From assembly GCA_963787835.1 (NCBI GenBank), contig CAWBEI010000002.1, positions 1,536,001 through 1,600,000 of the forward strand: a stretch of 64,000 nt of DNA, read 5' to 3'. Position numbers and translations under genes: made by a program. Source of the DNA: Ignavibacteriota bacterium. Lineage in GTDB: Bacteria; Bacteroidota; Ignavibacteria; Palsa-1295. How positions within the stretch are numbered: position 1 is the first letter of the stretch; each line of letters starts with the position of its first letter. Shown piece by piece: positions 11,567 through 55,501 of the stretch. The notes under the pieces are model-generated. The model was given only the letters and a program-made list of their open reading frames with translations, was not told the origin of the DNA and made no database searches.

Positions 11567-11794
11567 TTATTCTTTTAAGAGAAGATCAGGTGTGATCTTT
11601 AGGGCCTTTGCAAGACGGGCGAGATTATCAATACCGATACTCACTTGCTCTGACTCAACTTTGCTAATATAAACGTGTGTCATTGAACAGCGAAATCCGA
11701 GGGCCTCTTGAGAGAGGTTGAGAGCTTTTCTATATTCGCGAATATTACGAGCAACAATTTTTCTTATTGGATTAACCACACACCAAACTACCAA
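11567..11794 (-). CDS. XRE-family helix-turn-helix regulator
   Basis: IVARNIREYRKALNLSQEAL...YISKVE...IGIDNLARLAKAL...LL; divergent from the 1479-aa gene. Confidence 0.88.
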   Translation of the reverse strand: MVVWCVVNPIRKIVARNIREYRKALNLSQEALGFRCSMTHVYISKVESEQVSIGIDNLARLAKALKITPDLLLKE

Positions 11795-11949
11795 ACATTA
11801 AGCCATAGGCTTTTCCCAAATTTGGTACAATGCCTTATTTTCATCGTATATTTGTATTAAGTGCTTTATGAAAAGCTCGGGCCGGGTACTTTTTTAGAAA
11901 AAACTGGTTTCATTGTAAGTCACGTCACCATGTAAAGGAGAATTGAGAG

Positions 11950-14900
11950 ATGAAAAAATCGATAAGTGTTAAGAGAATAGGTTTTGCCGTTTGCTTCACG
12001 TTACTCTTATGCTCAGGAGGAGTTCGCGCTCAGAGCTACGTCCCCGTTCCATATAATTTTGGTGTCGTCTTCGAAGCGACCGATGATTCAGCAGGAGTGG
12101 GTTTTAAGACAACCGACCTCTCAATGGACTGCCTTGCCGCAAATGGGTATGGTCAATGGACTGCTTCTTACAAAACACAAAATGCATTTGATTCCGGTAG
12201 CCCGGGCCTGTTCTTGCTGGCCAATGCGCTTCGCTCACCAGATTCAAATATAGTTACCGAACGTGTCTCGTCAACTGGAATTGTCTCGTTCAGACCGTTC
12301 GTCTATCCGGACAGTTCTGGGTATCCCGTTGATAGCACCACAACACACCGAAGTGTTGTGAAGTGTGTTGCCAACCTCAAAGGACGGGTTCGTTATGTGT
12401 GGCCACTTCAAAACCATACGGGGTTTTATATTGAGGGATTCAATGAATGTCCAGCGAACGACTCCGTAGGACTATCCGGGATCAACCTCGAATTTGCAAG
12501 TTATCCATATAATACGACATATGGTGCTTACCCGAGTCCACTCCTAGCAAAAGATGTAATCAAGCCAGCTACAGCCATCCCATTTAATACCATTCCAATG
12601 GCGTCTGGACATACGATTGTTACTAGCGCGCATGAGGCAGACCCCCGGGACTGGTTCGATATTGCTATCGACACAACATATCTATATGTTGTGTGGGAAG
12701 AGTATGATTCTACAGGACACTATAATATCTGGGAACTTAACGAGAACCTCTCCACCGGGCAATTTGGCCCCCCCATTGAGGTCGCGGCAGGGGCCAGGAG
12801 ACCCACGATCTCTGTTGATCTAAGGAAACATTTAACACCAGTTACACCTTGGCTCCCATGTTTTGATGTAGCCTATATTACGGGGCTTCTATCCACCGAT
12901 CATCTGACGTGGTACAACTATGATGGATTTAGAATCCCTGCTGCTGACACTATGGCGATGACAAAGAGTTCGGAAGACACAGCAGGAGGAACATGGTCAT
13001 ATAAGAAAGTCATGCACGCAAGAATGCTTGATGCAACATGGGAAAATATTTCGTCGTCCGACACGACTCCAAGAGCAATTTATGCAATCGTTACAGACTC
13101 TGTTAATAGTACCCATCTCGTTATGCATAAGATCAAGGGAGGCGCACAGGACGCAACGGCATATTATTGCGATGGTTCGAAAATTACTTATCACTCGTAT
13201 GGAGTTGATAACGGTAAGTTCCCAGTTATTGATAAGCCCATCCGAGCGTTTGTAAATCCTTATGATGGTGAAAATAACGATAACTTCGACGAGTACCATT
13301 GCATGTACCAACTGGCGAGAACATACACTGGTGGCTCACACAGGCCACTTATGATTATTCATGGGGCACTTGTGAATAATTCGCTGGGCCCCAAAAGGTG
13401 TCTCAACTTTACAAATGGGTATCTGACGCCAGGAACTGTATTTTTCCGCCCTGACACTTTTCACTCGTTCTATGCTGACCCTGGCTTGAATACGGATGGC
13501 GGCGACACGGATAATTATGTTGGTGCAGTAAACCAAATGGGAATTCACACCCACTGGCGCAACGGAACACAACACTACTATCTCAGAGACACTCGCATAT
13601 TTGATGAAAACATCGAGGAGAATACACTCGTCACAGAGGATGCTTTTGTTATCGATGGCACAACACATGGTGGGACTTATACGCCTACTATTCAACCTGG
13701 GAAGACAATGACATTGTGGTCTGACCGTATAAACGGCTATGGTGTAGATAACTTCCCAGGAAAATGTACCCTGTGGATCACATACTTTGAAGGTAACTTT
13801 GGGGCTAATGATGCCGCGACCAAACTAATCGTTGGGACTGGAACGGGCAATCCTGCCAAAATGGTAGTTGTGTGGAATGCGGACGTTCAATCGGATACAA
13901 GTTCTCAACAAGTAGTTATAAAACCGCTCTCATCACTAGATGCATACGGTAATTCGGACTTTGAAACGACCCTTAAAATGGAAGGCATTGGGGCAACGAT
14001 GACTGGGGGAACGTATAATTACCCTTCTGCTATTTCAAGTCCTGCATATCTTAACCTACATGGGCATAGCCTTTTCTTTCCAGCAAGTGTTTTAGCAGAT
14101 AGTAGTCTTATCACCACTGAATACGACCAGGACGCAACGTTGCTCGATAGTAGCTTTGATTTTTCAGGCCTATATGTGCCGTTTCCCAGCACCATTACGA
14201 ATTCAATAATTTTGAATAAAGACACAAGCGTCCCGGGGAGCAACATTGCCACGATTGAGATGTGGGAGACAGATTTATTACATGATACAATCTCGATTAT
14301 CAATTGTCTGATTCAGCAGGGTAGACTTGCAGTACCCGAACCTTTCTTCCAGCCTCTTCCGATTATAATATCCGGTGGGAAATTCGATAATACTCCAATT
14401 TGGGGATATTTCGTTCCTAATTCATTAACGATAGAAAACGTCTTGTTCAAGCTTACAAGCTATCCTCACAATACATTGGGTGCGGGTGCAGAAATTTTTC
14501 TCCAAAACGAAAATGGTTCATATCTCCCATACGAAACCTATAACACGACTACCATTTCCGGGTGTGATTTCGCAGAACTCCCAAATGGCTCTGACGGAAT
14601 TTTTGCTTACGATTACGCAACCGATTCCGACATTGTGCAACATCTCCAAATTAGCGGAAATTCCTTTAATGATGCCGCTTATTCTGGCCTTCTTCCCCAC
14701 GCCGCCATTGAGCTAAAACATTCCGAAGGGCTGATTGCCGATAATACTATTGAAGGTTATTTCCAATATGGCATTATCGTGTCCGGGAATAATTCCTATA
14801 CTACACTTCAAACAAAGTCCACTATTTGTTCGAATTCCATAGCGACTGGGACTATTGCTGGGATTGCAACAGATAACACTGAGGGCTACGCAGAACTCAA

Positions 14901-16389
14901 CGAAGTTCAAAAAATCACTGGAGCAGGGCATATCAGTGGCGTCAATGACAAAGGCCGGATTATTTACTCAAATTATTCTAATAATGAGGGATCGGGAATT
15001 GTGGCATCTGATTCATCGGGGGAAGGTGCTGCCGATCTAACTGGCATCCATTCAACCACTCCTGATTCCATCGATAATGCCGCATTCGATACGATTCAAC
15101 AAAACGGAGGTAATGCACAAATTAGCCTCGTGAAAGGAGCCAACATTCGGCTTGGAAATGACCATGAATTATGGTCATGGACCAATTGGTGTCAAAATAA
15201 CATTATCACGTCTTATTCTGACAATGGTTGTGATGGTGGTGTCAGCTATGTTCCATTTATCGTCGAGGATAGCGGCAAAACCAACAGTAAGCTTGGCAAC
15301 ATATCACACAATTTTTTTGACGATATTAATATTGGTTTTGTGTTACCTGAAAACCAGCCGACAGGAACTGGATGCAACGATACACTCAATCGTGGAACGC
15401 CTTCGAGTTGGCTATCTTCTTATTCGACTCCCATCGCTGCAACGGGGTTTTGCAATAGCGCCGATTCTAATGATACTACATGGCAATCTCGGCCTGATGG
15501 TGCAGTTGATTGCGGAGCACCATTGCCTTTATACAAGACCAAAAAGAAATCTCCAAAAACTCTATCATTTCTAAATTTAGACACCTCCACATGCCAATAT
15601 AAATTTTCGTTAGGGGATGCTGATGATCAAGCTGGCGAATACCTACAAGCTGTTAACGAATTAGAGTGGTATGTTGAAACCTGCTACGATTCCGGCGCAG
15701 CACAAGCATTTGGGGATTTACCCGGTGCTGTTGGCGCTATGGGAGGTGACACATCGAGATTTACCACCTTCCGAGAGTGGCTAAAGACAGTTCTTTGGCT
15801 TGGACCAATGTACCCAAATTATTATTGCAATTGTGCTCAAGATATGTATGAAAGCTACGAAGGAATTGATGCAGGCCGTAATTTGAATGCAGCTCTTGCA
15901 GTCATTAGATATTTGGACTCATCCGGCCGATGCAATTGGGATGCGGACGAAAATGAATATCTTGCCATGCGTCATCAGATATGGCTCGATACTGTAGGCG
16001 GATTACACAAAGGCGATACGACGGATTTTCCCGAAGACACAACGCTTCCTACTATTGATGATCTTGGCCTTCAAATCCTTCGCGGACCTCTTGCCGTAGT
16101 TCAGAATGTGTCTCCATCGCCGTCGGGAATTAGTGGTCTCACCGCAAGCGAAAATCCATTCGTCAAAGAGACGACGATCTCCTTTACCACAGGGGAATAT
16201 GCCTACATCAGTTTCCAGGTGTTCGATGTGCTCGGAAGAGTGCTGCAAGGGGACTATAAAGGCTCAGTCCAGTCTCCTGGCTCTTACTCCTTTACTGTCG
16301 ATGGCACAAACTGGCCTCCGGGGCCTTATTATGCTCGCATTACAACGCCTCTTGGTGAAACGAGGACAATAAAATTGGTGAAGGAATGA
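11950..16389 (+). CDS. very large secreted T9SS type-A cargo protein with probable right-handed beta-helix region
   Basis: AGGAG RBS, signal peptide ending VRAQ, I-x-x-N-x-I/F repeats (ISGCDF, ISGNSF, IADNTI, ICSNSI), CTD ENPF...FDVLGR...GPYYARI...TIKLVKE. Visibly more AT-rich than its neighbours. Confidence 0.82.
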   Translation: MKKSISVKRIGFAVCFTLLLCSGGVRAQSYVPVPYNFGVVFEATDDSAGVGFKTTDLSMDCLAANGYGQWTASYKTQNAFDSGSPGLFLLANALRSPDSNIVTERVSSTGIVSFRPFVYPDSSGYPVDSTTTHRSVVKCVANLKGRVRYVWPLQNHTGFYIEGFNECPANDSVGLSGINLEFASYPYNTTYGAYPSPLLAKDVIKPATAIPFNTIPMASGHTIVTSAHEADPRDWFDIAIDTTYLYVVWEEYDSTGHYNIWELNENLSTGQFGPPIEVAAGARRPTISVDLRKHLTPVTPWLPCFDVAYITGLLSTDHLTWYNYDGFRIPAADTMAMTKSSEDTAGGTWSYKKVMHARMLDATWENISSSDTTPRAIYAIVTDSVNSTHLVMHKIKGGAQDATAYYCDGSKITYHSYGVDNGKFPVIDKPIRAFVNPYDGENNDNFDEYHCMYQLARTYTGGSHRPLMIIHGALVNNSLGPKRCLNFTNGYLTPGTVFFRPDTFHSFYADPGLNTDGGDTDNYVGAVNQMGIHTHWRNGTQHYYLRDTRIFDENIEENTLVTEDAFVIDGTTHGGTYTPTIQPGKTMTLWSDRINGYGVDNFPGKCTLWITYFEGNFGANDAATKLIVGTGTGNPAKMVVVWNADVQSDTSSQQVVIKPLSSLDAYGNSDFETTLKMEGIGATMTGGTYNYPSAISSPAYLNLHGHSLFFPASVLADSSLITTEYDQDATLLDSSFDFSGLYVPFPSTITNSIILNKDTSVPGSNIATIEMWETDLLHDTISIINCLIQQGRLAVPEPFFQPLPIIISGGKFDNTPIWGYFVPNSLTIENVLFKLTSYPHNTLGAGAEIFLQNENGSYLPYETYNTTTISGCDFAELPNGSDGIFAYDYATDSDIVQHLQISGNSFNDAAYSGLLPHAAIELKHSEGLIADNTIEGYFQYGIIVSGNNSYTTLQTKSTICSNSIATGTIAGIATDNTEGYAELNEVQKITGAGHISGVNDKGRIIYSNYSNNEGSGIVASDSSGEGAADLTGIHSTTPDSIDNAAFDTIQQNGGNAQISLVKGANIRLGNDHELWSWTNWCQNNIITSYSDNGCDGGVSYVPFIVEDSGKTNSKLGNISHNFFDDINIGFVLPENQPTGTGCNDTLNRGTPSSWLSSYSTPIAATGFCNSADSNDTTWQSRPDGAVDCGAPLPLYKTKKKSPKTLSFLNLDTSTCQYKFSLGDADDQAGEYLQAVNELEWYVETCYDSGAAQAFGDLPGAVGAMGGDTSRFTTFREWLKTVLWLGPMYPNYYCNCAQDMYESYEGIDAGRNLNAALAVIRYLDSSGRCNWDADENEYLAMRHQIWLDTVGGLHKGDTTDFPEDTTLPTIDDLGLQILRGPLAVVQNVSPSPSGISGLTASENPFVKETTISFTTGEYAYISFQVFDVLGRVLQGDYKGSVQSPGSYSFTVDGTNWPPGPYYARITTPLGETRTIKLVKE

Positions 16390-16446
16390 GAAAAATTCAA
16401 ATTTCATGATGGGTGAGAAAATTGTCGTATATTAGTTCGTACTTTG

Positions 16447-16665
16447 ATGGGCACCTATATCAATTTTCAAGTAAGCATTGAGAATTAAGAGTAGGTGTGC
16501 ATCGCTCATTGGCAATTTGGGCGGCATAGCTTTCGTTATGAACGAGTTCTCTGTGAAGGGACTTTTATGAATACTCGTTGAAACAAATGGCGAAATTGGC
16601 TTAAAAACGAAGGGTGAAGATGAAATGTCGGGAACTCACAAAAAAGAAAAATAGCACCTATTTCT
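16447..16665 (+). ncRNA. candidate structured non-coding RNA, copy A (unknown family)
   Basis: Shares six blocks with copy B: ATGGGCACCTAT, GCTTTCGTTATGAACGAGT, ATGGCGAAA, AAACGAAGG, TCGGGAACTCACAA, GCACCTATTTCT. Preceded by TATATT (16428-16433). No conserved ORF. Confidence 0.6.
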
Positions 16666-16743
16666 TGAGGAAACACGATTTTGTCTAATAATCTTGTTCG
16701 AGCCTTCGGCTGGACCGCGCTCATTCGCAAAGGTTTCTCTATT

Positions 16744-17808
16744 TCAGTAACGGAGGGCAGGATTGGGGATCTGGCCATATTTAAATATGGCGAACGTTCC
16801 CGGAATGATGGTTGGCCTTGGGTTGGGTTTATCCTTCGTTTGAGCCGGGGCGGGGCCGAGATCGGCAGTGGTGAGATAGATGTCATGCGTGGTTGGGTCG
16901 AACCCGACATTGCGCGCGCCCTTCTTGGTTTCGAGCTTTTGTGCGAGCTTGTATTTGCCCTCGGTGGTCTCTCTCAGAATGGTAACATTTCCCTCACCAT
17001 TGGCGCTGAACGCAAGCTTGGTGAAGGGATCGAAATCCGCAGCATCGACGCCTTTGCCGATGGGGAAAGTCTGGGTGATCTTGCCATTGGTCGCATTCAT
17101 CACGATCATTTTCTGATTCGCGCATCCGGCGAAAAGGCGGTTCGAGCCACGATCCATCGTGAGTGCCGTCGGTCCGACGCCCGGCGCGAGCTTCCACACC
17201 GCTTCAACCGTGTTGGTGCTCGAGTTGATCTTTGCGATCTCGGACGTGCTTTCAATATTGACATAGACGTAGCCACGTTCATCGGAGATGGCGGATTCGG
17301 GGTTCCCATCAAGCGCAATAAGCGCGAGCGAGGCGCCGGTGCTGGCATCGAGTACTGAAATATTATTGCTACCGGCGTTCATCACAAACACATGATGGGA
17401 AGCATAGTCATAGATAATGGCATCCGGCTTTTCGCCGACTGCAATGCGCTGAATGGTGTCACGTTTCTGCAAACCGAACTCCAGCACCGTATTCGATTTT
17501 CCGCAGGAGATAAACCCATGCTTTTCGCGATCTGCAATGGCAATACCATGAGCACCTTCCGTATTTAAGATCGGTGCCATCACGGAATCGTGGTCGAGGT
17601 TATAGGTTTCGACTTGCGTGGCGTGCGCGATATATAGCGTTCGGTTTTCGGCATCGACTGTAAGAAAATCCCACCCGCCCTGACCGCCGATCGTTACTTG
17701 TTTTAAAAGCTGATAGCGTATCGAATTCTGTGCGGATACATGACCGCAACAGCACGTGATAAAAATTCCGAGCGATAGGAAAGAGAGCCTTGACGTGAGC
17801 TTATTCAT
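16744..17808 (-). CDS. YncE/YVTN-family beta-propeller protein
   Basis: Signal peptide, GGWDFLTVD, GAHGIA, GEKPDAI, GKGVDAADFDP, KGARNVGFDP, IIPGTF. Confidence 0.88.
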   Translation of the reverse strand: MNKLTSRLSFLSLGIFITCCCGHVSAQNSIRYQLLKQVTIGGQGGWDFLTVDAENRTLYIAHATQVETYNLDHDSVMAPILNTEGAHGIAIADREKHGFISCGKSNTVLEFGLQKRDTIQRIAVGEKPDAIIYDYASHHVFVMNAGSNNISVLDASTGASLALIALDGNPESAISDERGYVYVNIESTSEIAKINSSTNTVEAVWKLAPGVGPTALTMDRGSNRLFAGCANQKMIVMNATNGKITQTFPIGKGVDAADFDPFTKLAFSANGEGNVTILRETTEGKYKLAQKLETKKGARNVGFDPTTHDIYLTTADLGPAPAQTKDKPNPRPTIIPGTFAIFKYGQIPNPALRY

Positions 17809-25399: not shown

Positions 25400-26489
25400 G
25401 TGACCGTCATGGAATCGGAAGCCTTTACCCAAGCTGATCCTCGCGTTGGTGTTACTCGAAGGATGGCGCTTACCTCGCGCATCATTGGCGAGTTTGCGCC
25501 GCATGAGGTGCTTCTGATCTTTTTTGCTGCGTTGTTCAGCTTGATTGCCGTCGTGGCGCATGAGCGTGTTACGGAATGGCCCCAGGTGCTTGTGAACATG
25601 CTTATTGCAGTTGCGATCATTGTTACCATGAGCTTTTGGTCTGTCAGAGCAGGTACGATCGGTGTTGTAGGGCGTTGGCCTCGCCGGCTACGTTTATATT
25701 ATCTGTTTCCGGTCATTCCCATTTATTTCATGACTGCGGGGCTCATTTCACATCCGTTGCATCTGATGGATTTCGATTCCATGCTCATCGCTGCGGATCG
25801 CACCATCTTTGGCGTGAACCCCACCGTATGGCTATATGAGCATTTCCCTTCGTGGCCCTGGCTCACTGAATACCTCATGCTCTGCTACTCCGCATTCTAC
25901 TTTTTGCCACTCGGGCTGGCCATCGAGCTCTATAAACGTGCCAGAAAAAAAAGACGAGTTCGGCCATACAAACCCGTTCTTGTTCGGCGGCGCTCGAAGT
26001 GGGGATCAGCCCGAACCCGTGGAGCAGGTCGTCTTTATTATTGCGTATGGGTTTCTTCTCTCGTATCTGGGGTACATTTGTATTCCTGCGATCGGCCCGC
26101 GTTTTACGTTGCATAACTTTCTAAACCTCTCGAACGAGTTACCCGGTCTTTTTCTGACAGAGCCGCTCAGAACGCTCCTCGACCGTGGCGAAAATATTTT
26201 GCCCGGAATGTCCATGGCGACTATTCTTGCCCGTGTCACCCGCGATGCCTTCCCAAGTGGGCATACCGATGTTACCGTGCTCACGATCCTGCTTGCATTC
26301 CAATTCCGATCGCGGTTGCGATGGCCGATCACCGTTATTGGCCTATGCCTTATTTTCTCGACCGTGTATCTGCGGTATCACTATGTGGTCGATATTCTCG
26401 GCGGCCTCATCATGGCTGTGATCACACTCTACTCCTGGCAGTGGGTGCGAGAGCGCATGATAGAGATACGAGCGCGGTTCGTTCAGTGA
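25400..26489 (+). pseudogene. PAP2-family / inositolphosphoceramide-synthase-like membrane phosphotransferase, split by a +1 frameshift (possibly a sequencing error)
   Basis: N-half (25400-) and C-half (PAIGPRF, DAFPSGH, YLRYHYVVD) join if the A8 run at 25945-25952 is read as A7. Confidence 0.75.
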
Positions 26490-26498
26490 GTGTCACCG

Positions 26499-26713
26499 AG
26501 AAATAGGTGCCATTTCTTTTTCTTGTGAGTTCCCGATGCTCCTTCGTTTCCGAGCTGTTTTCGCCATTCGTTCTGGAAGAACAGCAAAATCCCTTTTCTC
26601 AAAGGACTCGTTCATAACGAAAGCGATACCCGACATCAATTTTCATTGAACATCTGCACCCCGATTCATCTTTCATCTCTCATATTTCATCTTTTCCCCG
26701 GATAGGTGCCCAT
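26499..26713 (-). ncRNA. candidate structured non-coding RNA, copy B (unknown family)
   Basis: Reverse-complement homolog of 16447-16665 with identical block order; downstream of a consensus sigma70 promoter. Confidence 0.65.
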
Positions 26714-26725
26714 AGTCTCACTCTC

Positions 26726-26754
26726 AATATACGGACTTCATTCGACAATGTCAA
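26726..26754 (-). promoter_or_regulatory. near-consensus sigma70 promoter driving ncRNA copy B
   Basis: Minus strand TTGACA (26754-26749), 17 nt, TATATT (26731-26726). Confidence 0.8.
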
Positions 26755-26898
26755 GGAATTCCAAAAGATTTTAGAATTTTTTCGTACACCCCGAAACTTT
26801 CCACCCCGCTTCCGGCAAGTTATACTTGTCGGGCGATCCGGAAGCCATACGGCATTGGAAACAGAGTATCATTGTTCACTTTTTACTTAAATTCGGCT

Positions 26899-28374
26899 AT
26901 GAAAAAGATTAGCACCATTTTTTCGTTTTTTTGCGTGCTTGTGTTGCTTGCTCTACCCAGCGCCCCTCGCGCTCAAACAATCACGATCGATTCCATGTCC
27001 GGAACCACGTTTTGTGCCGGTGATCCGCTCTCGGTAACATTCACTGCCACTGGAACATGGGGACATAAGAATGCCTTCACGCTCCAACTCTCGAACGACA
27101 GCGGAATCTTCGATAACGGATTCCAGAATATCGGATCGATAGTCGATACCGCTCCGGGCACTTTTACAATATACACTACGGCTCCTGGTGGCCTGACATT
27201 TCAGCAATTCAGTATTACCCAATACATTGATAAAGATGGCAGGGATACGCTCTATTACGCCGACACAGTCATGACAAGAATTATAGGTAACGATACTACT
27301 TTCGATACGGTAGATGCTCCGCACATAGTAGTCATTCCCGACACTGTTTACGACACCACATTACCTACGCATTATCGTGTACGCATTATGGGAGCTTTAC
27401 CGTACACCCTAAGTGCGGATAATGGCACAGACATAGTGGTTAGTCCAAGCCCAGGCATAATATCCTTCTCTTATCCTCGGCCCGGACTACCTACCCCCCT
27501 AACAGACTCTCTCTATGATGCAGTAATTGGTGCTCCGATAAATTATTATCTTAATGGTGGTTCTGGCACCACATTTTATTGGAATTACGGAGATGGGGCC
27601 GATCCAGCCACATTTACAGAGGTGAATTCTCAGCAACCCAAAACAACCTATTCAACTCCGGGGCTAAAAATGGTGACTGTCCAGGCTGTCGCATCCGGTG
27701 GGTGTTCGGTCTCCGACACAGCCTATACTTATGTGTATGATTGTACCATCCCCGTAATTCCAAATGATGCCATTGTCATTTCGAGCGATACAGCCTTGGG
27801 TGATTGGGACGATTCTTCACTCTATTACGCTTATTCTGCAATCCGAAATCGTACCTTCTGGATAAACCCCGGCGTGACGGTTTGGACCAACACCGGCGTC
27901 TTCAACAATGTTGATACCATCTTCGCCGAATCTGGGGCAAATATCTTGGGTGGGGGTAGTCAAAGCATTGTCTATCTAAAGCCCGGCGCTACCGCAAGTG
28001 ACTGCCTTGTCATCAGTGACACAGGTACAAGTCTCACGGAATGTACTGTGCTGGAATGCCCAGGACTTAGCTTCGATTATTCTCAAGCGCCACCCAACGC
28101 GATCATGGCTGCATACGAAAGCGTTGCGCCAGCCGTATCTTCGGAGCCAATTGAATTATTTCCAAATCCAACGAACGGCAACGTCACGCTGCAAAACCTT
28201 CCATTGGGTGCAAATATAATGGTGATGAATGTGCTCGGCGAGACGGTGCAAACCGAGAACGCGAGAGGGAATACGAATCTTTCACTCGATCTCTCGAATT
28301 TCGCACCCGGAACGTATTATATTCGAATTGCTTCTGGAAATAGTGTAACAACGAAGAAAATGGTGAAGGAATAA
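26899..28374 (+). CDS. secreted T9SS type-A cargo protein with PKD-like domain
   Basis: Signal peptide MKKIST...PRAQ, FYWNYGDG...TYSTPG PKD motif, CTD LFPNPTNG...NVLGE...GTYYIRI...KKMVKE. ORF is open from 26872. Confidence 0.85.
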   Translation: MKKISTIFSFFCVLVLLALPSAPRAQTITIDSMSGTTFCAGDPLSVTFTATGTWGHKNAFTLQLSNDSGIFDNGFQNIGSIVDTAPGTFTIYTTAPGGLTFQQFSITQYIDKDGRDTLYYADTVMTRIIGNDTTFDTVDAPHIVVIPDTVYDTTLPTHYRVRIMGALPYTLSADNGTDIVVSPSPGIISFSYPRPGLPTPLTDSLYDAVIGAPINYYLNGGSGTTFYWNYGDGADPATFTEVNSQQPKTTYSTPGLKMVTVQAVASGGCSVSDTAYTYVYDCTIPVIPNDAIVISSDTALGDWDDSSLYYAYSAIRNRTFWINPGVTVWTNTGVFNNVDTIFAESGANILGGGSQSIVYLKPGATASDCLVISDTGTSLTECTVLECPGLSFDYSQAPPNAIMAAYESVAPAVSSEPIELFPNPTNGNVTLQNLPLGANIMVMNVLGETVQTENARGNTNLSLDLSNFAPGTYYIRIASGNSVTTKKMVKE

Positions 28375-28410
28375 GAACCTGGATTACGCTGATTTATTTC
28401 TGATTTCGCT

Positions 28411-28450
28411 GATGAACGTTCAAGGATTATTCCTTGAGCGTTCATCCTTT
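28411..28450 (+). terminator. hairpin with short U-tract after the PKD/T9SS gene
   Basis: GATGAACGTTCAAGGA-TTAT-TCCTTGAGCGTTCATC followed by CTTTT. Confidence 0.55.
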
Positions 28451-28457
28451 TAGGAAT

Positions 28458-29510
28458 ATGCAGAAAAATTTGAAGATGTCATTGCGAGAAGGGAATTGCG
28501 TAGCGAAGCGAAGCAATTCCCGACGGAGCAATCTCCACGCCGGAGATTGCTTCGTCGGGTCGAACACCCTCCGGTCGTCCGTCCCTTCTCGCAATGACAC
28601 CTTCAAAATTCTTTTTTTGATCCTTTTGAGCGCCTTCGCAAGCTGCTCCAGCCCATCTGACCCTCCCGCAACAACCAGCAGCGGCGAAAAGCTGGAGGGA
28701 ACGGTTGCAGCGTATGCATCCGGCACGCCAATATCGCTTTCGCCAACGGGCATTCAAATTTCGATTCAGGGCACTGCGTATCAGGCGACCGCTGATACCA
28801 GCGGCCATTTCGAAATAGATAACATTCCCGCCGGAGTTTATAATATCATTTTCTGGAAACCGGGATTCGATTCGATGATCTATCCGGTGCATCATATCAT
28901 CGGCGCGGGAACCGATATTATTAACGATGCTTATTTGGTCCAGGAGTCGTCCGATTCGATCACGATGACGGGTGTGTCCTACGTATTCAATGTCAGTCAG
29001 ACGAAGATCATAACCGTTATTGACACTACGATCACGGACAGTCTCGGCAAATTTGATACAATCGTTTCTAAACGGGACTCTGAAGTGGTTATCTATGATA
29101 CTGCTGGAAATTCTAATGGAATGATACTGAGTGGAAAAGTGACAGGGCTGCTCCCGCCGGGAAATATTTATGTGTATACATCGCTGGATAGTGAATTATT
29201 TCCTACAATGTCGAGTCCGCAAAATCAGAGTATGACAGAAGACGCATGGCTTGCAACCCAGTTGAATACTGCTTCGTATCATTCCGGGTTTCAGTCACCA
29301 AAAATGATAGCGGGAGCTTTTAAGGACACACTCACAATGGATGTTGCAACGCTCATGCCATATTCTCTTTCAGCGGGACAAGTAGTGTATGTGTATGTCG
29401 TTGGGCATTCGAATGTGACGGGACTTCCTGCGCAAGGCGGAGAGTATCAGCATTTTAGCACTACGCCGTTCGGGCCTGCTGCGGTGAGGTTTACCTATGT
29501 AGTACCGTAA
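28458..29510 (+). CDS. lipoprotein with carboxypeptidase-regulatory-like (prealbumin-fold) domain
   Basis: Lipobox LLSAFASC, ISIQGT...ADTSGHFEIDNIPAGVYNI...KPGF. The N-terminus is partly encoded by a REP element. Confidence 0.78.
   Translation: MQKNLKMSLREGNCVAKRSNSRRSNLHAGDCFVGSNTLRSSVPSRNDTFKILFLILLSAFASCSSPSDPPATTSSGEKLEGTVAAYASGTPISLSPTGIQISIQGTAYQATADTSGHFEIDNIPAGVYNIIFWKPGFDSMIYPVHHIIGAGTDIINDAYLVQESSDSITMTGVSYVFNVSQTKIITVIDTTITDSLGKFDTIVSKRDSEVVIYDTAGNSNGMILSGKVTGLLPPGNIYVYTSLDSELFPTMSSPQNQSMTEDAWLATQLNTASYHSGFQSPKMIAGAFKDTLTMDVATLMPYSLSAGQVVYVYVVGHSNVTGLPAQGGEYQHFSTTPFGPAAVRFTYVVP
28477..28599. repeat. REP/REPIN element, GTCATTGCGAG family, copy 1 (inside CDS)
   Basis: TGTCATTGCGAGAAGGGA ... 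TCCCTTCTCGCAATGACA terminal inverted repeats with inner AGCAATCTCC/GGAGATTGCT; 123 bp. Confidence 0.88.
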
Positions 29511-29538
29511 GGAAGTTTATGACTATGCTTTTATTAAA

Positions 29539-29676
29539 ACGTCATTGCGAGGAGAATCGAACGACCGGAGGGAGTTCGATTCGACGAAGCAATCTCCGAA
29601 CATTCAGCCGAACCTCAACAGATTGCTTCGTCGGAATTACTCTGCTTCGCTACGTAATTCCTCCTCGCAATGACGT
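29539..29676. repeat. REP/REPIN element, GTCATTGCGAG family, copy 2
   Basis: ACGTCATTGCGAGGAG ... CTCCTCGCAATGACGT with inner CGACGAAGCAATCT/AGATTGCTTCGTCG. Confidence 0.88.
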
Positions 29677-29707
29677 GCATAATAACAAGCTATTATAACA
29701 TTTTTGC

Positions 29708-30301
29708 TTGGATAACGCGCACAAAGAGCGATTTCTTGCACTGCTGGAGCCGGTTTATCCTCGGCTTTTGCGATATGCGCTTGCCATGACACATGATCGC
29801 GAGCAAGCAAGGGATCTCGTTAGCGAGGCCATTCTTATTGCGCTCGAACGGTACGATTTCAATCGCGATGACTCGGGGTTCCCAGGTTTTCTCTACCGTA
29901 TCGTAGCGCGGACCTACAAACGCTGGCATCGCCGCGATCAGCGATTTACGGCTGTTGAAGCAAGCACGCTGGAATCGATCCTCGATCTGAACACGATGCC
30001 GGATGTCGCTGCGGAAATTGCTATTGTGATGTCCGCGCTCGATCGGCTGCCTGCAAAGATGAAGGAAGCCATCTTGCTTTTCGATATTGCCGATCTATCG
30101 CTCGAAGAAATTCGTGCGATTCAAGGCGGAACGTTAAGCGGCGTGAAAAGCCGCTTGCGACGCGGGCGCGAGATGCTGAAAAAGATGCTTGGGGTCGATC
30201 CCGAAGAAGGCATAGGCAGCAAACCGAGTCAAGATCAACTCAGTAAAAACTCGGAAAATAATATCATTCTTATGGAGGCAATAGAAAATTATGCACTCTG
30301 A
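29708..30301 (+). CDS. ECF-family RNA polymerase sigma factor
   Basis: RLLRYALAMT...ARDLVSEA...FLYRIV; LPAKMKEAILLFDIADLSLEEI...SGVKSRLRRGR. Confidence 0.92.
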   Translation: MDNAHKERFLALLEPVYPRLLRYALAMTHDREQARDLVSEAILIALERYDFNRDDSGFPGFLYRIVARTYKRWHRRDQRFTAVEASTLESILDLNTMPDVAAEIAIVMSALDRLPAKMKEAILLFDIADLSLEEIRAIQGGTLSGVKSRLRRGREMLKKMLGVDPEEGIGSKPSQDQLSKNSENNIILMEAIENYAL

Positions 30302-31351
30302 CTCATATCAAACTTATATCAAATCGCTTAACGCGACGCCCACTTATTATCCATTCGGCAAGATGCGCGAACTTGTGATGAACCACAACGCACGCCGCAG
30401 ATCGGCGTTTATTCCGTTCTTCCGCTACGCCGTGGGTTTGGGTTTGCTTGCCACACTTATCGGCGGAATCTTTTTTATCAATAATTCACCTAATAACAGC
30501 GACACTCACTCTGCGGCAACGGTGAGTTCATCAGCTATGGCATCCATAATGAATGTTTCTCCTAATACGATGGTGGTTCTTCCTGTCCCAAAGGAAATTG
30601 ATAATAACAGCATCGCTAAAAAGGAGAGCAAAGAATATACTCCGACGAACAATGAGAATCTCAATGTGAACCAAAACAATACAAATAATAAGGCCACAAC
30701 CTATGAGAACCCAACGGTTGAGCATACTGCCGAACAAACGAATGCAGAGGTTCCGCAGACTGCTTCAGCTTTGAAATACTGCCCCCTCTGTTTCTTCCAG
30801 CTTAAATCAAATATCGAACGCCAGTGAGGAGATGAGCAGAAGAGATTGGTCGGGCTTTGTGTCCGGAGGACCGATAATTTCCAGCAATAGCTTTTCTTTT
30901 AAACTCTATCTTTGGGGCTGCCGGAGTGCACTATCGGATAGCTGGCTCATCCTCTTTAGTCGCAGAATTGCGGCATACTTCTTTCGCGGTCAATCGAGCC
31001 GGACAAAATGGCGGTCTTCATGACACCACATTTATAATAGGTGGTCATTCATACACAAATACAATAGGAACCCCTTCGCAATCGCCAACAACATCAAATT
31101 CGTTCGTAAACTCGGTTGATCTCGGATACCGGTATGTCCTGGAGCCGAATGTTGCACTCTCTCCAAGCGCAGAAATCCTTGCGGGCGCGAGCACATTCGG
31201 ATTTGTTTCCGTGGAGGCTATTGGTATCGAATACCAAATTACGTCATTGCTTACACTTGATCTATCCGCGAGAGCAGAACAACTGTTTTCTTCGCAGTCT
31301 GTGCCATTAACGACATTGGGCTTTGAAGCCGGTATTGGTTTTGGGTGGTAA
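30291..31351 (+). CDS. putative anti-sigma factor with TM helix, low-complexity linker and C-terminal outer-membrane beta-barrel (two +1 frameshifts, probably sequencing errors)
   Basis: ORFs 30291-30827, 30832-31023 and 30926-31351 join into one frame by removing one A at 30774-30776 and one at 30901-30903; ends GFEAGIGFGW. Confidence 0.65.
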
Positions 31352-31387: not shown

Positions 31388-32278
31388 TTACGGCGCCGTA
31401 AAATGCTTTTGCTTCGGCTTATTGGCGGCGCGGACGCTATCGCCATTTACGATGGTGTAGTCCTTCGGAATTTGGAATAGGGCGTCATCGAGCTTTTCTT
31501 CGGTGATGTCGGTAAGTTCGCCGCTCGCCATTACTTCGCCATTTACTTTGGTCTCGAATTTAACAGGTATCTTGCCGGCAATGGGCCGCATCATTCCGAA
31601 GATCTCATCGAGCCCTCCGGAGCCTTCGGTACCGCGCCCTAAAAAGGCATCGCGTACGACATCGAAGGATTTGAGCTTCGCATTATCCGAGAGCCACAGT
31701 TCGGTCTCGACTGGCCCCTTCGACGCATGGTATTCTTCGGTTTCCAGTCCGTGGATGGTTTGGGTCTTTCCGGTGGGCTGTGGCATCATGGCCATCAGGG
31801 AATCGAGGATGCCGTTATGCGCGAGTGAATCGTCGATCTTTCCGCGCGTGGAGTCAAGAGTGCGAAGGTCCAGTACCATCGCGGTGTGATTGGGCATCAG
31901 CACCGTAAGCGTGCGCGCATTACGGTCGATGATGGAGTGCATGGTGATTAGGCCACCCAACATGGACACATCGTATGCAACGACGTTCTCCCGCACATAC
32001 ATTTTAAGTCCGACGTTCGCAAAGGCTCCCATCGCGGCGGAAGAATTGCCGTCGCCGTTCCCGCTATCCATTTTGGAGAGATTACCGCCATTGCCGATCA
32101 ATTTCGCAATTCCAGGCATGTGAATGACTTCGGTGATGGTGCCTTCGTATGCGCTGGCAGGCATCTGGCTGCGCTCCGCGCAGGAGGCAAGCAGGAAGGA
32201 AAATAGGCAGGCGACGAGCAGAACAGCTTTTGTGGTTTTCATCGGAACATGGGTTTTCATCGGAGCATAGGTTTTCAC
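31388..32278 (-). CDS. lipoprotein, DUF4412/GLPGLI-like C-terminal domain
   Basis: Lipobox FLLASC, PTGKTQTIHGLETEEY...ELW...IPVK...LFQIPKDY. Confidence 0.75.
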   Translation of the reverse strand: MKTYAPMKTHVPMKTTKAVLLVACLFSFLLASCAERSQMPASAYEGTITEVIHMPGIAKLIGNGGNLSKMDSGNGDGNSSAAMGAFANVGLKMYVRENVVAYDVSMLGGLITMHSIIDRNARTLTVLMPNHTAMVLDLRTLDSTRGKIDDSLAHNGILDSLMAMMPQPTGKTQTIHGLETEEYHASKGPVETELWLSDNAKLKSFDVVRDAFLGRGTEGSGGLDEIFGMMRPIAGKIPVKFETKVNGEVMASGELTDITEEKLDDALFQIPKDYTIVNGDSVRAANKPKQKHFTAP

Positions 32279-40748: not shown

Positions 40749-40883
40749 GTCATTGCGAGGAGAATTCAGCGACCAACGGGAGCTGGATTCGACGAAGCAA
40801 TCTCATGCAGTTTTATCTGAAAACGAACGGATTGCTTCGTCGGACAAAAGCTCCTGCGTCGCTTTCGTCCTTCTCGCAATGAC
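40749..40883. repeat. REP/REPIN element, GTCATTGCGAG family, copy 3
   Basis: GTCATTGCGAGGAG ... CTTCTCGCAATGAC with inner CGACGAAGCAATC/GATTGCTTCGTCG. Confidence 0.88.
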
Positions 40884-48336: not shown

Positions 48337-48483
48337 TGTCATTCTGAGCGGAGCACATTTTCACAAAGCGAAAATGTGCGGAGTCGAAGAATCTCATGCA
48401 GTTCACCTCAGTGGGAAATCACAAGAGATCCTTCGACTTCGTTATTCCCTCCTTCGTCGGGAATAACTACGCTCAGGATGACA
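48337..48483. repeat. REP/REPIN element, GTCATTCTGAGCG family
   Basis: TGTCATTCTGAGCG ... CGCTCAGGATGACA with inner AGTCGAAGAATCTC/GAGATCCTTCGACT. Confidence 0.88.
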
Positions 48484-55334: not shown

Positions 55335-55501
55335 TGCCATTCCGAGCGGAGCAGACCATCGCGGAGCGATGGTCTGCGGAGTCGAGGAATCTTCGGTTTT
55401 ACCAATGTGAGCTAAACTGCACGAGATCCTTCGACTCCGTTCGGCTCCGCTTCGCTCCACCAAACTCCGCTTCGCTCCACCAAACTCCGCTCAGGATGAC
55501 A
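55335..55501. repeat. REP/REPIN element, GTCATTCTGAGCG family, with internal 20-bp tandem duplication
   Basis: TGCCATTCCGAGCGGAG ... CTCCGCTCAGGATGACA; CTCCGCTTCGCTCCACCAAA twice (55445-55484). Confidence 0.88.

Follow-up and report, generated by a model that had tools for sequence, protein, structure and literature searches.

The window, the whole 64,000-nucleotide stretch of DNA analysed here, comes from an uncultured soil bacterium (genome G000) and holds two copies, A and B, of a non-coding repeat, copy B being one of about 50 in the genome. Copy B (26491–26790, minus strand; nhmmer match C2:1562775–1562485, 223 bits, and alignments) consists of an AT-rich 5′ part, a promoter, an operator-like box, a mosaic body and a conserved 3′ end. 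On the minus strand, a −35 hexamer TTGACA (26749–26754), which the family alignment places in only part of the family, and a −10 hexamer TATATT (26726–26731) precede a predicted LexA box, AGTGA-N8-GCACC (26705–26722; PWM and footprinting), which overlaps the inferred start site. There follow four heptamers of the AAGATGA type (26666–26693), an interchangeable filler module that varies among copies; a conserved GTTCA(T/A)TGA(A/C)AA module (26640–26651), kept in the diverged versions of distant congeners; and three TTC-N5-GAA-type dyads (26570–26622, individually 26610–26622, 26595–26607 and 26570–26582). The 3′ block (26491–26536), the most conserved by column, comprises CGGGAACTC, an A-rich tract, a GCACC half-site (26503–26510) and TTTC-N5-GACA.

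On the 3′ side, this block ends 1 nt short of the stop codon of a gene for a PAP2-family phosphatase (25400–26489, plus strand; Pfam PF14378), a core gene with orthologues in 5/5 congeners. Behind the promoter lies a cargo islet (26872–31351, plus strand), in which Pfam identifies T9SS-tail, CarboxypepD_reg-like and ECF-type sigma factor genes with downstream gene(s), together with REP-like hairpins. At its far end is a second core gene, DUF4412 (31388–32278, minus strand), which adjoins the PAP2 gene in relatives.

Copy A (16395–16673, plus strand) has its −10 at 16428–16433, a box CGTAC-N8-GCACC at 16438–16455 (PWM score 23.0 bits) and its 3′ core at 16654–16673. The islet behind it (11567–16389) contains an XRE-type HTH gene and a gene for a 1479-aa secreted-type protein. 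A beta-propeller-like core gene (16744–17808, minus strand) lies on its 3′ side.

Read contigs that are otherwise identical to the window, from five low-depth DNA sequencing runs that may include the source sample, have one base fewer at 25945, 30773 and 30897. The split in the PAP2 gene near 25945 and the split gene(s) at 30291–31351 are therefore likely assembly errors rather than pseudogenes. GC-rich REP-like hairpin repeats of two families occur in the window at 28466–28610, 29541–29674, 40749–40883, 48337–48456 and 55335–55454, and one of them overlaps the apparent start of an ORF at 28434.

Distribution and parts of the repeat family

A preliminary description of this DNA recognized two copies of the element. 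Instead, an anchored search of G000 finds 50 complete copies, with another three represented by the 3′ anchor alone, and an nhmmer profile gives 84 matches, part of them split or variant copies. The 3′ end was counted 48, 38, 10 and 4 times in four congeners, in a species-specific spelling. Among all species genomes searched, the exact 3′ pattern matched only three MAGs, titled Ignavibacteriota or Ignavibacteriae bacterium; it also matched 26 metagenome contigs, and the repeat had no match in viral contigs. Among the matches listed, distant congeners have the same layout with a diverged body, namely promoter, box, TCATTGA(A/C)AA module and often a second GGCACC. In 15 genomes of the genus, the count of −10/GCACC modules ranges from 2 to 47 per genome, with 0–2 in controls; the genomes compared are related MAGs rather than independent samples, and all of the evidence is comparative.

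The TTC-N5-GAA dyad occurs 387 times in 130 copies, against 5 in shuffles, at about three per element with fixed spacing, and the dyads are likely to be protein-binding sites. Tandem dyads outside the elements, sought as the promoter of the binder's own gene, gave a single intergenic match, before an unrelated gene. In 37/150 copies, A and B not among them, a TGTG(G/A)ATAA word stands in place of the TTATGAATA module; this word matches the DnaA box. Variant elements (L276, L280, L282 and L311; C2:24500 and C2:739200 in G000) carry GGTGCC 15–30 nt after the 3′ GGCACC, the pair forming an outward-facing hairpin of two half-sites. In a check for a Chi-like role, no word of the element was over-represented or strand-skewed, GGCACC was under-represented (z −5) and the elements were oriented 32 leading to 22 lagging. 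No match to a dif pattern was found.

The same preliminary description read the arrangement as allowing an RNA with two mutually exclusive folds (a switch, or strand exchange for processing or circularisation), or a small DNA circle excised between two GCACCTAT repeats. Several of its observations stand. The 8-mers are at 26702–26709 and 26503–26510 (minus strand) in copy B and at 16451–16458 and 16654–16661 in copy A; the loop of copy B carries the four heptamers; the PAP2 gene converges on the copy B promoter, its stop codon (26487–26489) being 12 nt from the 3′ GGCACCTATT; and no ORF is conserved in the element. A conserved peptide was considered and rejected: an ATG or GTG follows the first dyad in 47/50 copies, and the ATG opens ORFs of 2–135 aa of no fixed frame or length. 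Also in favour of an RNA or circle are a sub-family with a GCACCTAT...ATAGGTGC hairpin (12/48 copies here) and the simple-repeat tail that follows the 3′ end in 31/150 copies, some of these tails being the same heptamer module as at 5′ ends.

The single internal pairing partner on which the switch depended did not survive comparison. Copy B pairs only GGTGC by Watson–Crick, its duplex is no better than those of shuffles (p 0.13; copy A, p 0.12), and most copies lack the partner, the full 8-nt complement being present in 12/48, 0/30, 1/24 and 2/24 copies of four genome sets, the first being this genome. Nor is the terminal direct repeat conserved among additional copies: the two ends are identical in 46/130, where permutation expects 45.4, and they do not co-vary. 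Folding against shuffles gives z −0.18 for copy B and z −2.99 for copy A, the latter chiefly from its heptamer hairpin. RNAalifold finds no consensus base pairs in 62 copies, and covariation equals that of shuffled alignments for candidate helices (0.065 vs 0.065) and is close to it for the dyads taken as hairpins (0.019 vs 0.018). In Rfam the window has no match at gathering score, and only chance matches (E 1–4) fall at the two copies; the repeat matches no known family of structured ncRNA, riboswitch or ribozyme and has no conserved structure.

Excision at GCACCTAT fares similarly. Among the sites listed, 74 are filled in relatives; of these, G000 carries a full copy at 30 and a variant at 10, whereas 31 are empty, two have a stray GGCACC and one a lone core, so that at most 1/34 element-free sites keeps a core, and the empty orthologous sites of copies A and B keep none. 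The predicted junction of an excision circle is not in the genome, and the sole back-joint among the read contigs still has the TTTC spacer, which is also seen in the 3′ tails of the chromosome. Of the proposal that the 8-mers are DNA crossover cores, what finds support is that the element is a recombination site in a broader sense; the crossovers lie inside it and not at the 8-mers. The RNA switch, with strand exchange and circularisation, finds no support, and comparison already largely refutes both the switch and the circle, which we consider highly improbable.

The promoter and a predicted LexA box

The promoter noted earlier in copy B is present, TTGACA (26754–26749) and TATATT (26731–26726) being separated by 17 nt on the minus strand with 11/12 consensus matches. 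TATATT is exact in 119/130 copies and lies 21–22 nt before the end of GCACC in 129/130. The −35 is not general, TTG[AC] being found at 17 nt in 74/130 copies and no TTG in 48/130. Family-wide alignment supports the putative promoter as a conserved part of the element.

The adjoining GCACC belongs to an 18-bp palindrome, of which it forms the right half; the family consensus of this palindrome is GGTGC-N8-GCACC, which is complete upstream of recA. Degenerate forms of the palindrome precede recA in 13/16 and lexA in 11/20 family genomes and none of 24 promoters of other families, the chance expectation being about 0.3 per set. Since a palindrome upstream of lexA and recA is the standard footprint of a LexA box, GGTGC-N8-GCACC is likely to be an unreported LexA box of an uncultured Bacteroidota-related family. 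A canonical LexA (PF01726 and PF00717) is encoded in the window genome (C6:57595–58272) and a LexA in 27/27 family genomes; the LexA proteins of the family share a helix, SSTFG[VI]RKH, and a longer wing. In G036 the LexA helix is similar, yet the motif is missing.

A PWM was trained on 20 lexA/recA sites, all of them promoter sites of these two genes and three of the training genomes being rich in promoter modules; by this measure the 5′ site reaches the training minimum in 113/130 copies and the 3′ site in 0/150. The box of copy B scores 13.7 bits against a training minimum of 12.8. On these scores the two 'direct repeats' described earlier are better read as two different things, a complete predicted operator where transcription would start and, at the 3′ end, a half-site, the 5′ repeat of copy B being the right half of the predicted box plus flank.

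Outside the repeat, the −10/GCACC arrangement precedes two dinB genes, recQ, ssb, a radical SAM gene, an alkylation-repair/mutS operon and lexA. Left half-sites are weak at several stand-alone repair genes (ssb, 7.8; recQ, 6.5; alkylation/mutS, 2.7 bits), and the recognized motif may therefore not be a simple palindrome. Taken together, the dyad before lexA and recA, the canonical LexA, the motifs at repair genes and the box scores of the elements are what a LexA regulon would be predicted to present. The Fibrobacter LexA box has a similar TGC-N8-GCA geometry. The predicted box resembles that of Geobacter, GGTT-N10-AACC, in its 18-bp length. In published descriptions, LexA boxes are likewise palindromic dyads at a fixed spacer before lexA, recA, dinB, radical SAM, ssb and recQ genes (PMC8565304, PMC7739468, PMC9578287), and the motifs given there for Bacteroidetes (GGA-N5-TCC as well as CTAA-N5-TTAG) and Balneolaeota are unlike GGTGC-N8-GCACC (PMC8565304, PMC7739468). 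The motif was not found in print, although subscription papers and supplements may hold it, and nothing was found in the literature that links a LexA-binding motif with Kapabacteria.

In G000 (L037, C6:58322–58500) and in two congeners, a variant copy of the repeat forms the leader of lexA itself, and a full copy lies ahead of lexA in metagenome contig L243. The recA leader of G020 (L085, alongside L037 and L243) has the same promoter–box–heptamer start. Four related proteins of 230–270 aa are encoded behind predicted LexA boxes in G000, at C2:5554(−), C2:9667(+), C2:1382432(−) and C2:1412359(−) (L314–L316), the first two within an inverted duplication at the start of C2. They have no Pfam match, and their Atlas look-alikes are DnaB/RecA-fold ATPase domains (0.92); on this resemblance they may be ImuA-like SOS proteins. 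The same family was considered as a partner of the repeat and set aside, having Atlas look-alikes but nothing in Pfam.

It is likely that the promoter of the repeat is repressed by LexA and switched on by DNA damage. One could then suppose that the selected function is regulatory, the elements providing either transcripts induced by damage, which read through into core genes in sense or antisense, or LexA decoys that tune the SOS response, with islets collecting behind the promoter just because that is the harmless side. The conserved position of promoter and box in nearly all copies would suit this, as would the lexA leaders just described and the distribution of sites: of 99 non-coding sites of at least 9 bits, 73 are inside elements, with a further 90 sites lying within ORFs. 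However, the downstream gene is co-directional with the promoter in 32/50 copies, about 55% being expected, so that there is no orientation preference. There is no conserved fold, and a terminator-like site follows just 7/150 copies. The simple absence of the element from 31 of the 74 sites argues against gene-specific regulation. The number of modules also varies, from 2 to 47, across the genus. We regard a primarily regulatory function as improbable.

Polarity, turnover of cargo and a proposed route of entry

The repeat separates accessory genes, behind its promoter, from core genes in front. GC content is lower on the promoter side in 48/50 copies (0.465 vs 0.515, p 2e-9), a dip that spans about 4 kb, and GC3 of the flanking gene is lower there in 47/50 (0.448 vs 0.590 on the 3′ side). 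At 60 loci of two congeners (40/48 and 20/38 of their element sites), the upstream gene lacks and the downstream gene has an orthologue in G000 in 40 cases, with three of the reverse, 14 with both and three with neither. Among the matches listed, G001, G003 and G012 have the same trend (19 vs 5 among 40 modules, part of which are plain SOS promoters). Polarity is absent from the REP-like repeats (10/25 and 54/114) and weak in heptamer runs (21/31) and variant copies (17/25). NCBIfam names T9SS-tail proteins, Cas9, IS1595, RAYT (REP-associated transposase) and many unnamed products upstream, and rplJ, rplM, rplO, rplA, thrS, mdh, recN, kbl and pstC downstream.

Comparison with relatives reveals gain, loss and exchange at these junctions. 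The islet of copy B is missing between PAP2 and DUF4412 in 5/5 congeners, and in 4/5 the element is missing as well, PAP2 abutting DUF4412; at this site G014 has a variant element with hairpin repeats alone and no cargo genes. At the copy A junction both islet and element are missing in 4/5 congeners, and the fifth has a different context. In L236, an element next to another core gene has behind it four relatives of the copy B cargo genes (51–78% aa identity). Cas9 is directly behind an element in four genomes (C2:1212089 in G000; L151, L166 and L307), each time with a different downstream core gene. The sole reverse transcriptase matches of G002 (L261) and G006 (L262) are both interrupted by a stop codon and belong to cargo, being located 1.6 and 3.2 kb, respectively, from an element on its promoter side.

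Within the element, the identities of promoter, 5′ module and middle are nearly uncorrelated among 48 copies (rho −0.01 to 0.07). Where the same cargo is found at different sites (n=8 pairs), the promoter (0.74 vs 0.61) and 5′ module (0.62 vs 0.47) are more alike, and the middle and 3′ flank are not shared; where the cargo has changed at the same site (43 pairs), all segments are more alike than background. Core blocks flank 35 loci on either side; synteny is broken at 17 of these, and 7/17 breaks lead to an element in the same orientation within 10 kb, where 9% is expected. These patterns suggest that crossovers fall inside the mosaic element. The N5 of the 3′ end was considered as a recombinase coupling sequence and rejected: its identity at 18 orthologous site pairs is 0.69, while the host bases next to it reach 0.84 and unrelated pairs 0.46, and it changes only mildly faster than the host bases.

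Traces of insertion are found at the promoter. In L117, a 2960-bp IS1595-family element with 23-bp terminal inverted repeats lies within the promoter of a relative's copy, and its insertion has duplicated 8 bp holding the −10 box, one copy on each side. Relics of the 5′ half of the promoter, in the same orientation, give seven matches upstream and none downstream of the 50 copies here, a small count in which three of the seven come from one duplicated event; in relatives there are 10 matches, including two mis-cut real promoters and one duplicate. Some relics break within the −10 box or immediately ahead of it; others do so some 10 nt higher up and then run into heptamers. The far ends of the copy A and B islets carry no relic. 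Strong hairpins lie 5′ of 20/48 copies and 3′ of 8/48.

Our favoured reading, to which we give an even chance, is that the repeat acts as an SOS-promoter landing pad and recombination anchor for gene islets, by way of homologous recombination and resident transposases. The element would settle in an intergenic gap, initially without cargo. DNA would then enter at the AT-rich promoter through resident transposases (IS1595, REP-associated Y1); alternatively, incoming DNA would pair with a resident copy via RecA, its far end being joined illegitimately or through another repeat. An intact promoter would be kept or restored beside the body. Polarity would follow, since DNA entering at the promoter ends up behind it, and cargo would be confined to the 5′ side because it comes in at the −10 box or immediately ahead of it, while the intact promoter stays next to the body. 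Recombination from copy to copy could carry cargo and promoter to other sites, breaking synteny. After DNA damage, release of LexA would open the promoter at the very time of RecA and SSB induction, so linking the capture of genes to stress. Copy number, mosaicism, polarity, presence and absence, swapping of cargo, insertions that split the promoter and the box before SOS genes are directly supported by comparison. In further favour of this reading, a ComEC-type gene is present in 5/5 genomes and a VirD4-type gene in 0/15. Against a landing pad, an element lies at one edge in just 18/49 low-GC3 islets, and the model gives no account of the dyads or the 3′ half-site.

The 3′ end of the repeat raises another possibility: a non-autonomous mobile unit with a single end, of which the repeat would be the conserved terminus (att-, ori- or oriT-like). 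A candidate enzyme (a resident Y1/RAYT HUH transposase, XerCD or the protein of a visiting element) would bind the dyads, cut at the 3′ end and, under SOS control, take upstream DNA of varying length with it. The element has a sharp 3′ boundary after TTTC-N5-G[AC][AC]A, and at four independent sites exactly 12 nt separate its end from the convergent gene's stop codon, the shortest distance seen; sites with this spacing are window 26491, C2:1211730, C2:583680 and C4:85761 in G000, and L120 and L236. The spacing and the sharp end suit an enzyme-defined end better than plain homologous recombination and, with the dyads at their fixed spacing, keep the one-ended reading alive. Further points in its favour are the one-sided cargo, with an element at both edges in 0/49 of the same low-GC3 islets, and the location of 4/9 Y1 loci within 2.5 kb of a copy on its promoter side, Y1 transposases being plentiful.

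On the other hand, no shared partner enzyme was found among the tyrosine recombinases, IS110, RT and VirD4 searched. G002, 97% complete and with 48 copies, has just two tyrosine recombinases and no IS110 match, and the two that are shared look like XerC and XerD. The third integrase of G000 has no homologue in G002 or G009 and is patchy (4/14 congeners), and G000 has no RT. An IS91-type Y2 transposase search was uninformative, giving 0/5 genomes with the control genomes likewise blank. Across 138 loci there is no target-site duplication, 5- to 9-bp upstream repeats being at permutation level, and neither a direct nor an inverted repeat was found at the far end of islets. The 3′ part does not move along with cargo, L233/L243 being the exception, and the viral contigs are again without the repeat. 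We consider the one-ended unit rather unlikely, though it is compatible with the landing-pad reading and could possibly be the step that founds new sites.

Relation to known systems

Short, multi-copy, modular intergenic repeats that are homogenized within species include Correia elements, BOX and STAR repeats and MITEs. Unlike these, the present repeat has no terminal inverted repeats or target duplication, a strongly one-sided link to acquired genes and a promoter that is predicted to be operator-controlled. The tests for a MITE or insertion sequence gave no terminal inverted repeats within the element, no upstream excess of inverted 3′ ends (6 up vs 20 down) and no target-site duplication. 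For an att-type excision element, the ends are identical at chance level and no cognate integrase was found among the tyrosine recombinases. Correia elements affect the expression of neighbouring genes (PMC1797815).

For neisseriae, it has been proposed that the mosaic intergenic NIME/dRS3 repeats and minimal mobile elements help neighbouring genes to be exchanged, through homologous recombination or with the aid of a recombinase (PMC1797815). Those repeats are likewise dispersed, mosaic, syntenic and dynamic between strains, with alternative cargo at the same locus (PMC1797815). Mosaic syntenic repeats beside variable DNA are found here too, but the consensus lacks the 20-bp dRS3 inverted repeats that flank RS spacers, and the copies form no arrays; they are single polar units with a built-in promoter and a predicted LexA box, their cargo is one-sided, and it consists of whole foreign genes rather than alleles.

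Islets that have the element at one end and are free of repeats at their far end would be explained by the single homologous anchor and ragged far end of homology-facilitated illegitimate recombination (PMC2884548). In that process any shared sequence is the anchor (PMC2884548), whereas the anchor proposed here is a multi-copy element dedicated to the task, its promoter under regulation. Integrons also couple gene capture and shuffling to the SOS response, as is predicted here, and accrete cargo on one fixed side of a platform (PMC3323433, PMC9578287). In contrast to integrons, there is no integron integrase (IntI next to attI was not found) and there are no attC hairpins, cargo lies in both orientations (the upstream gene being co-directional in 26/50 copies and divergent in 24/50) with the promoter facing away from it, and some 50 separate platforms replace one array. 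By analogy, the repeat would work most like NIME/dRS3 and minimal mobile elements, with a logic like that of SOS-controlled integrons, though it lacks the features that define either, and may be regarded as a variant of the interspersed repeats that promote gene exchange. A polar, operator-gated design of this kind was not found in the literature searched on repeats, LexA boxes and islands.

An open question is how small gene islets come to occupy fixed hot spots of the chromosome when no integrase is involved. The hot spots here are marked by one repeat with readable polarity, so that the route of entry is directly testable. A more far-reaching reading, which we put forward tentatively and rate as rather unlikely, is distributed, integrase-free gene capture, in which dozens of LexA-gated promoters open after damage and lead foreign DNA, including surface proteins, Cas9, and defence and toxin–antitoxin genes, to one safe side, while also forming the main LexA sink; such a system would be a dispersed functional analogue of the integron. 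A repeat that likely contains about three quarters of the non-coding LexA sites of the genome would also be a rare bacterial case of a repeat spreading the site of a regulator. For this uncultured Bacteroidota-related family, the box itself is likely to be a new SOS box.
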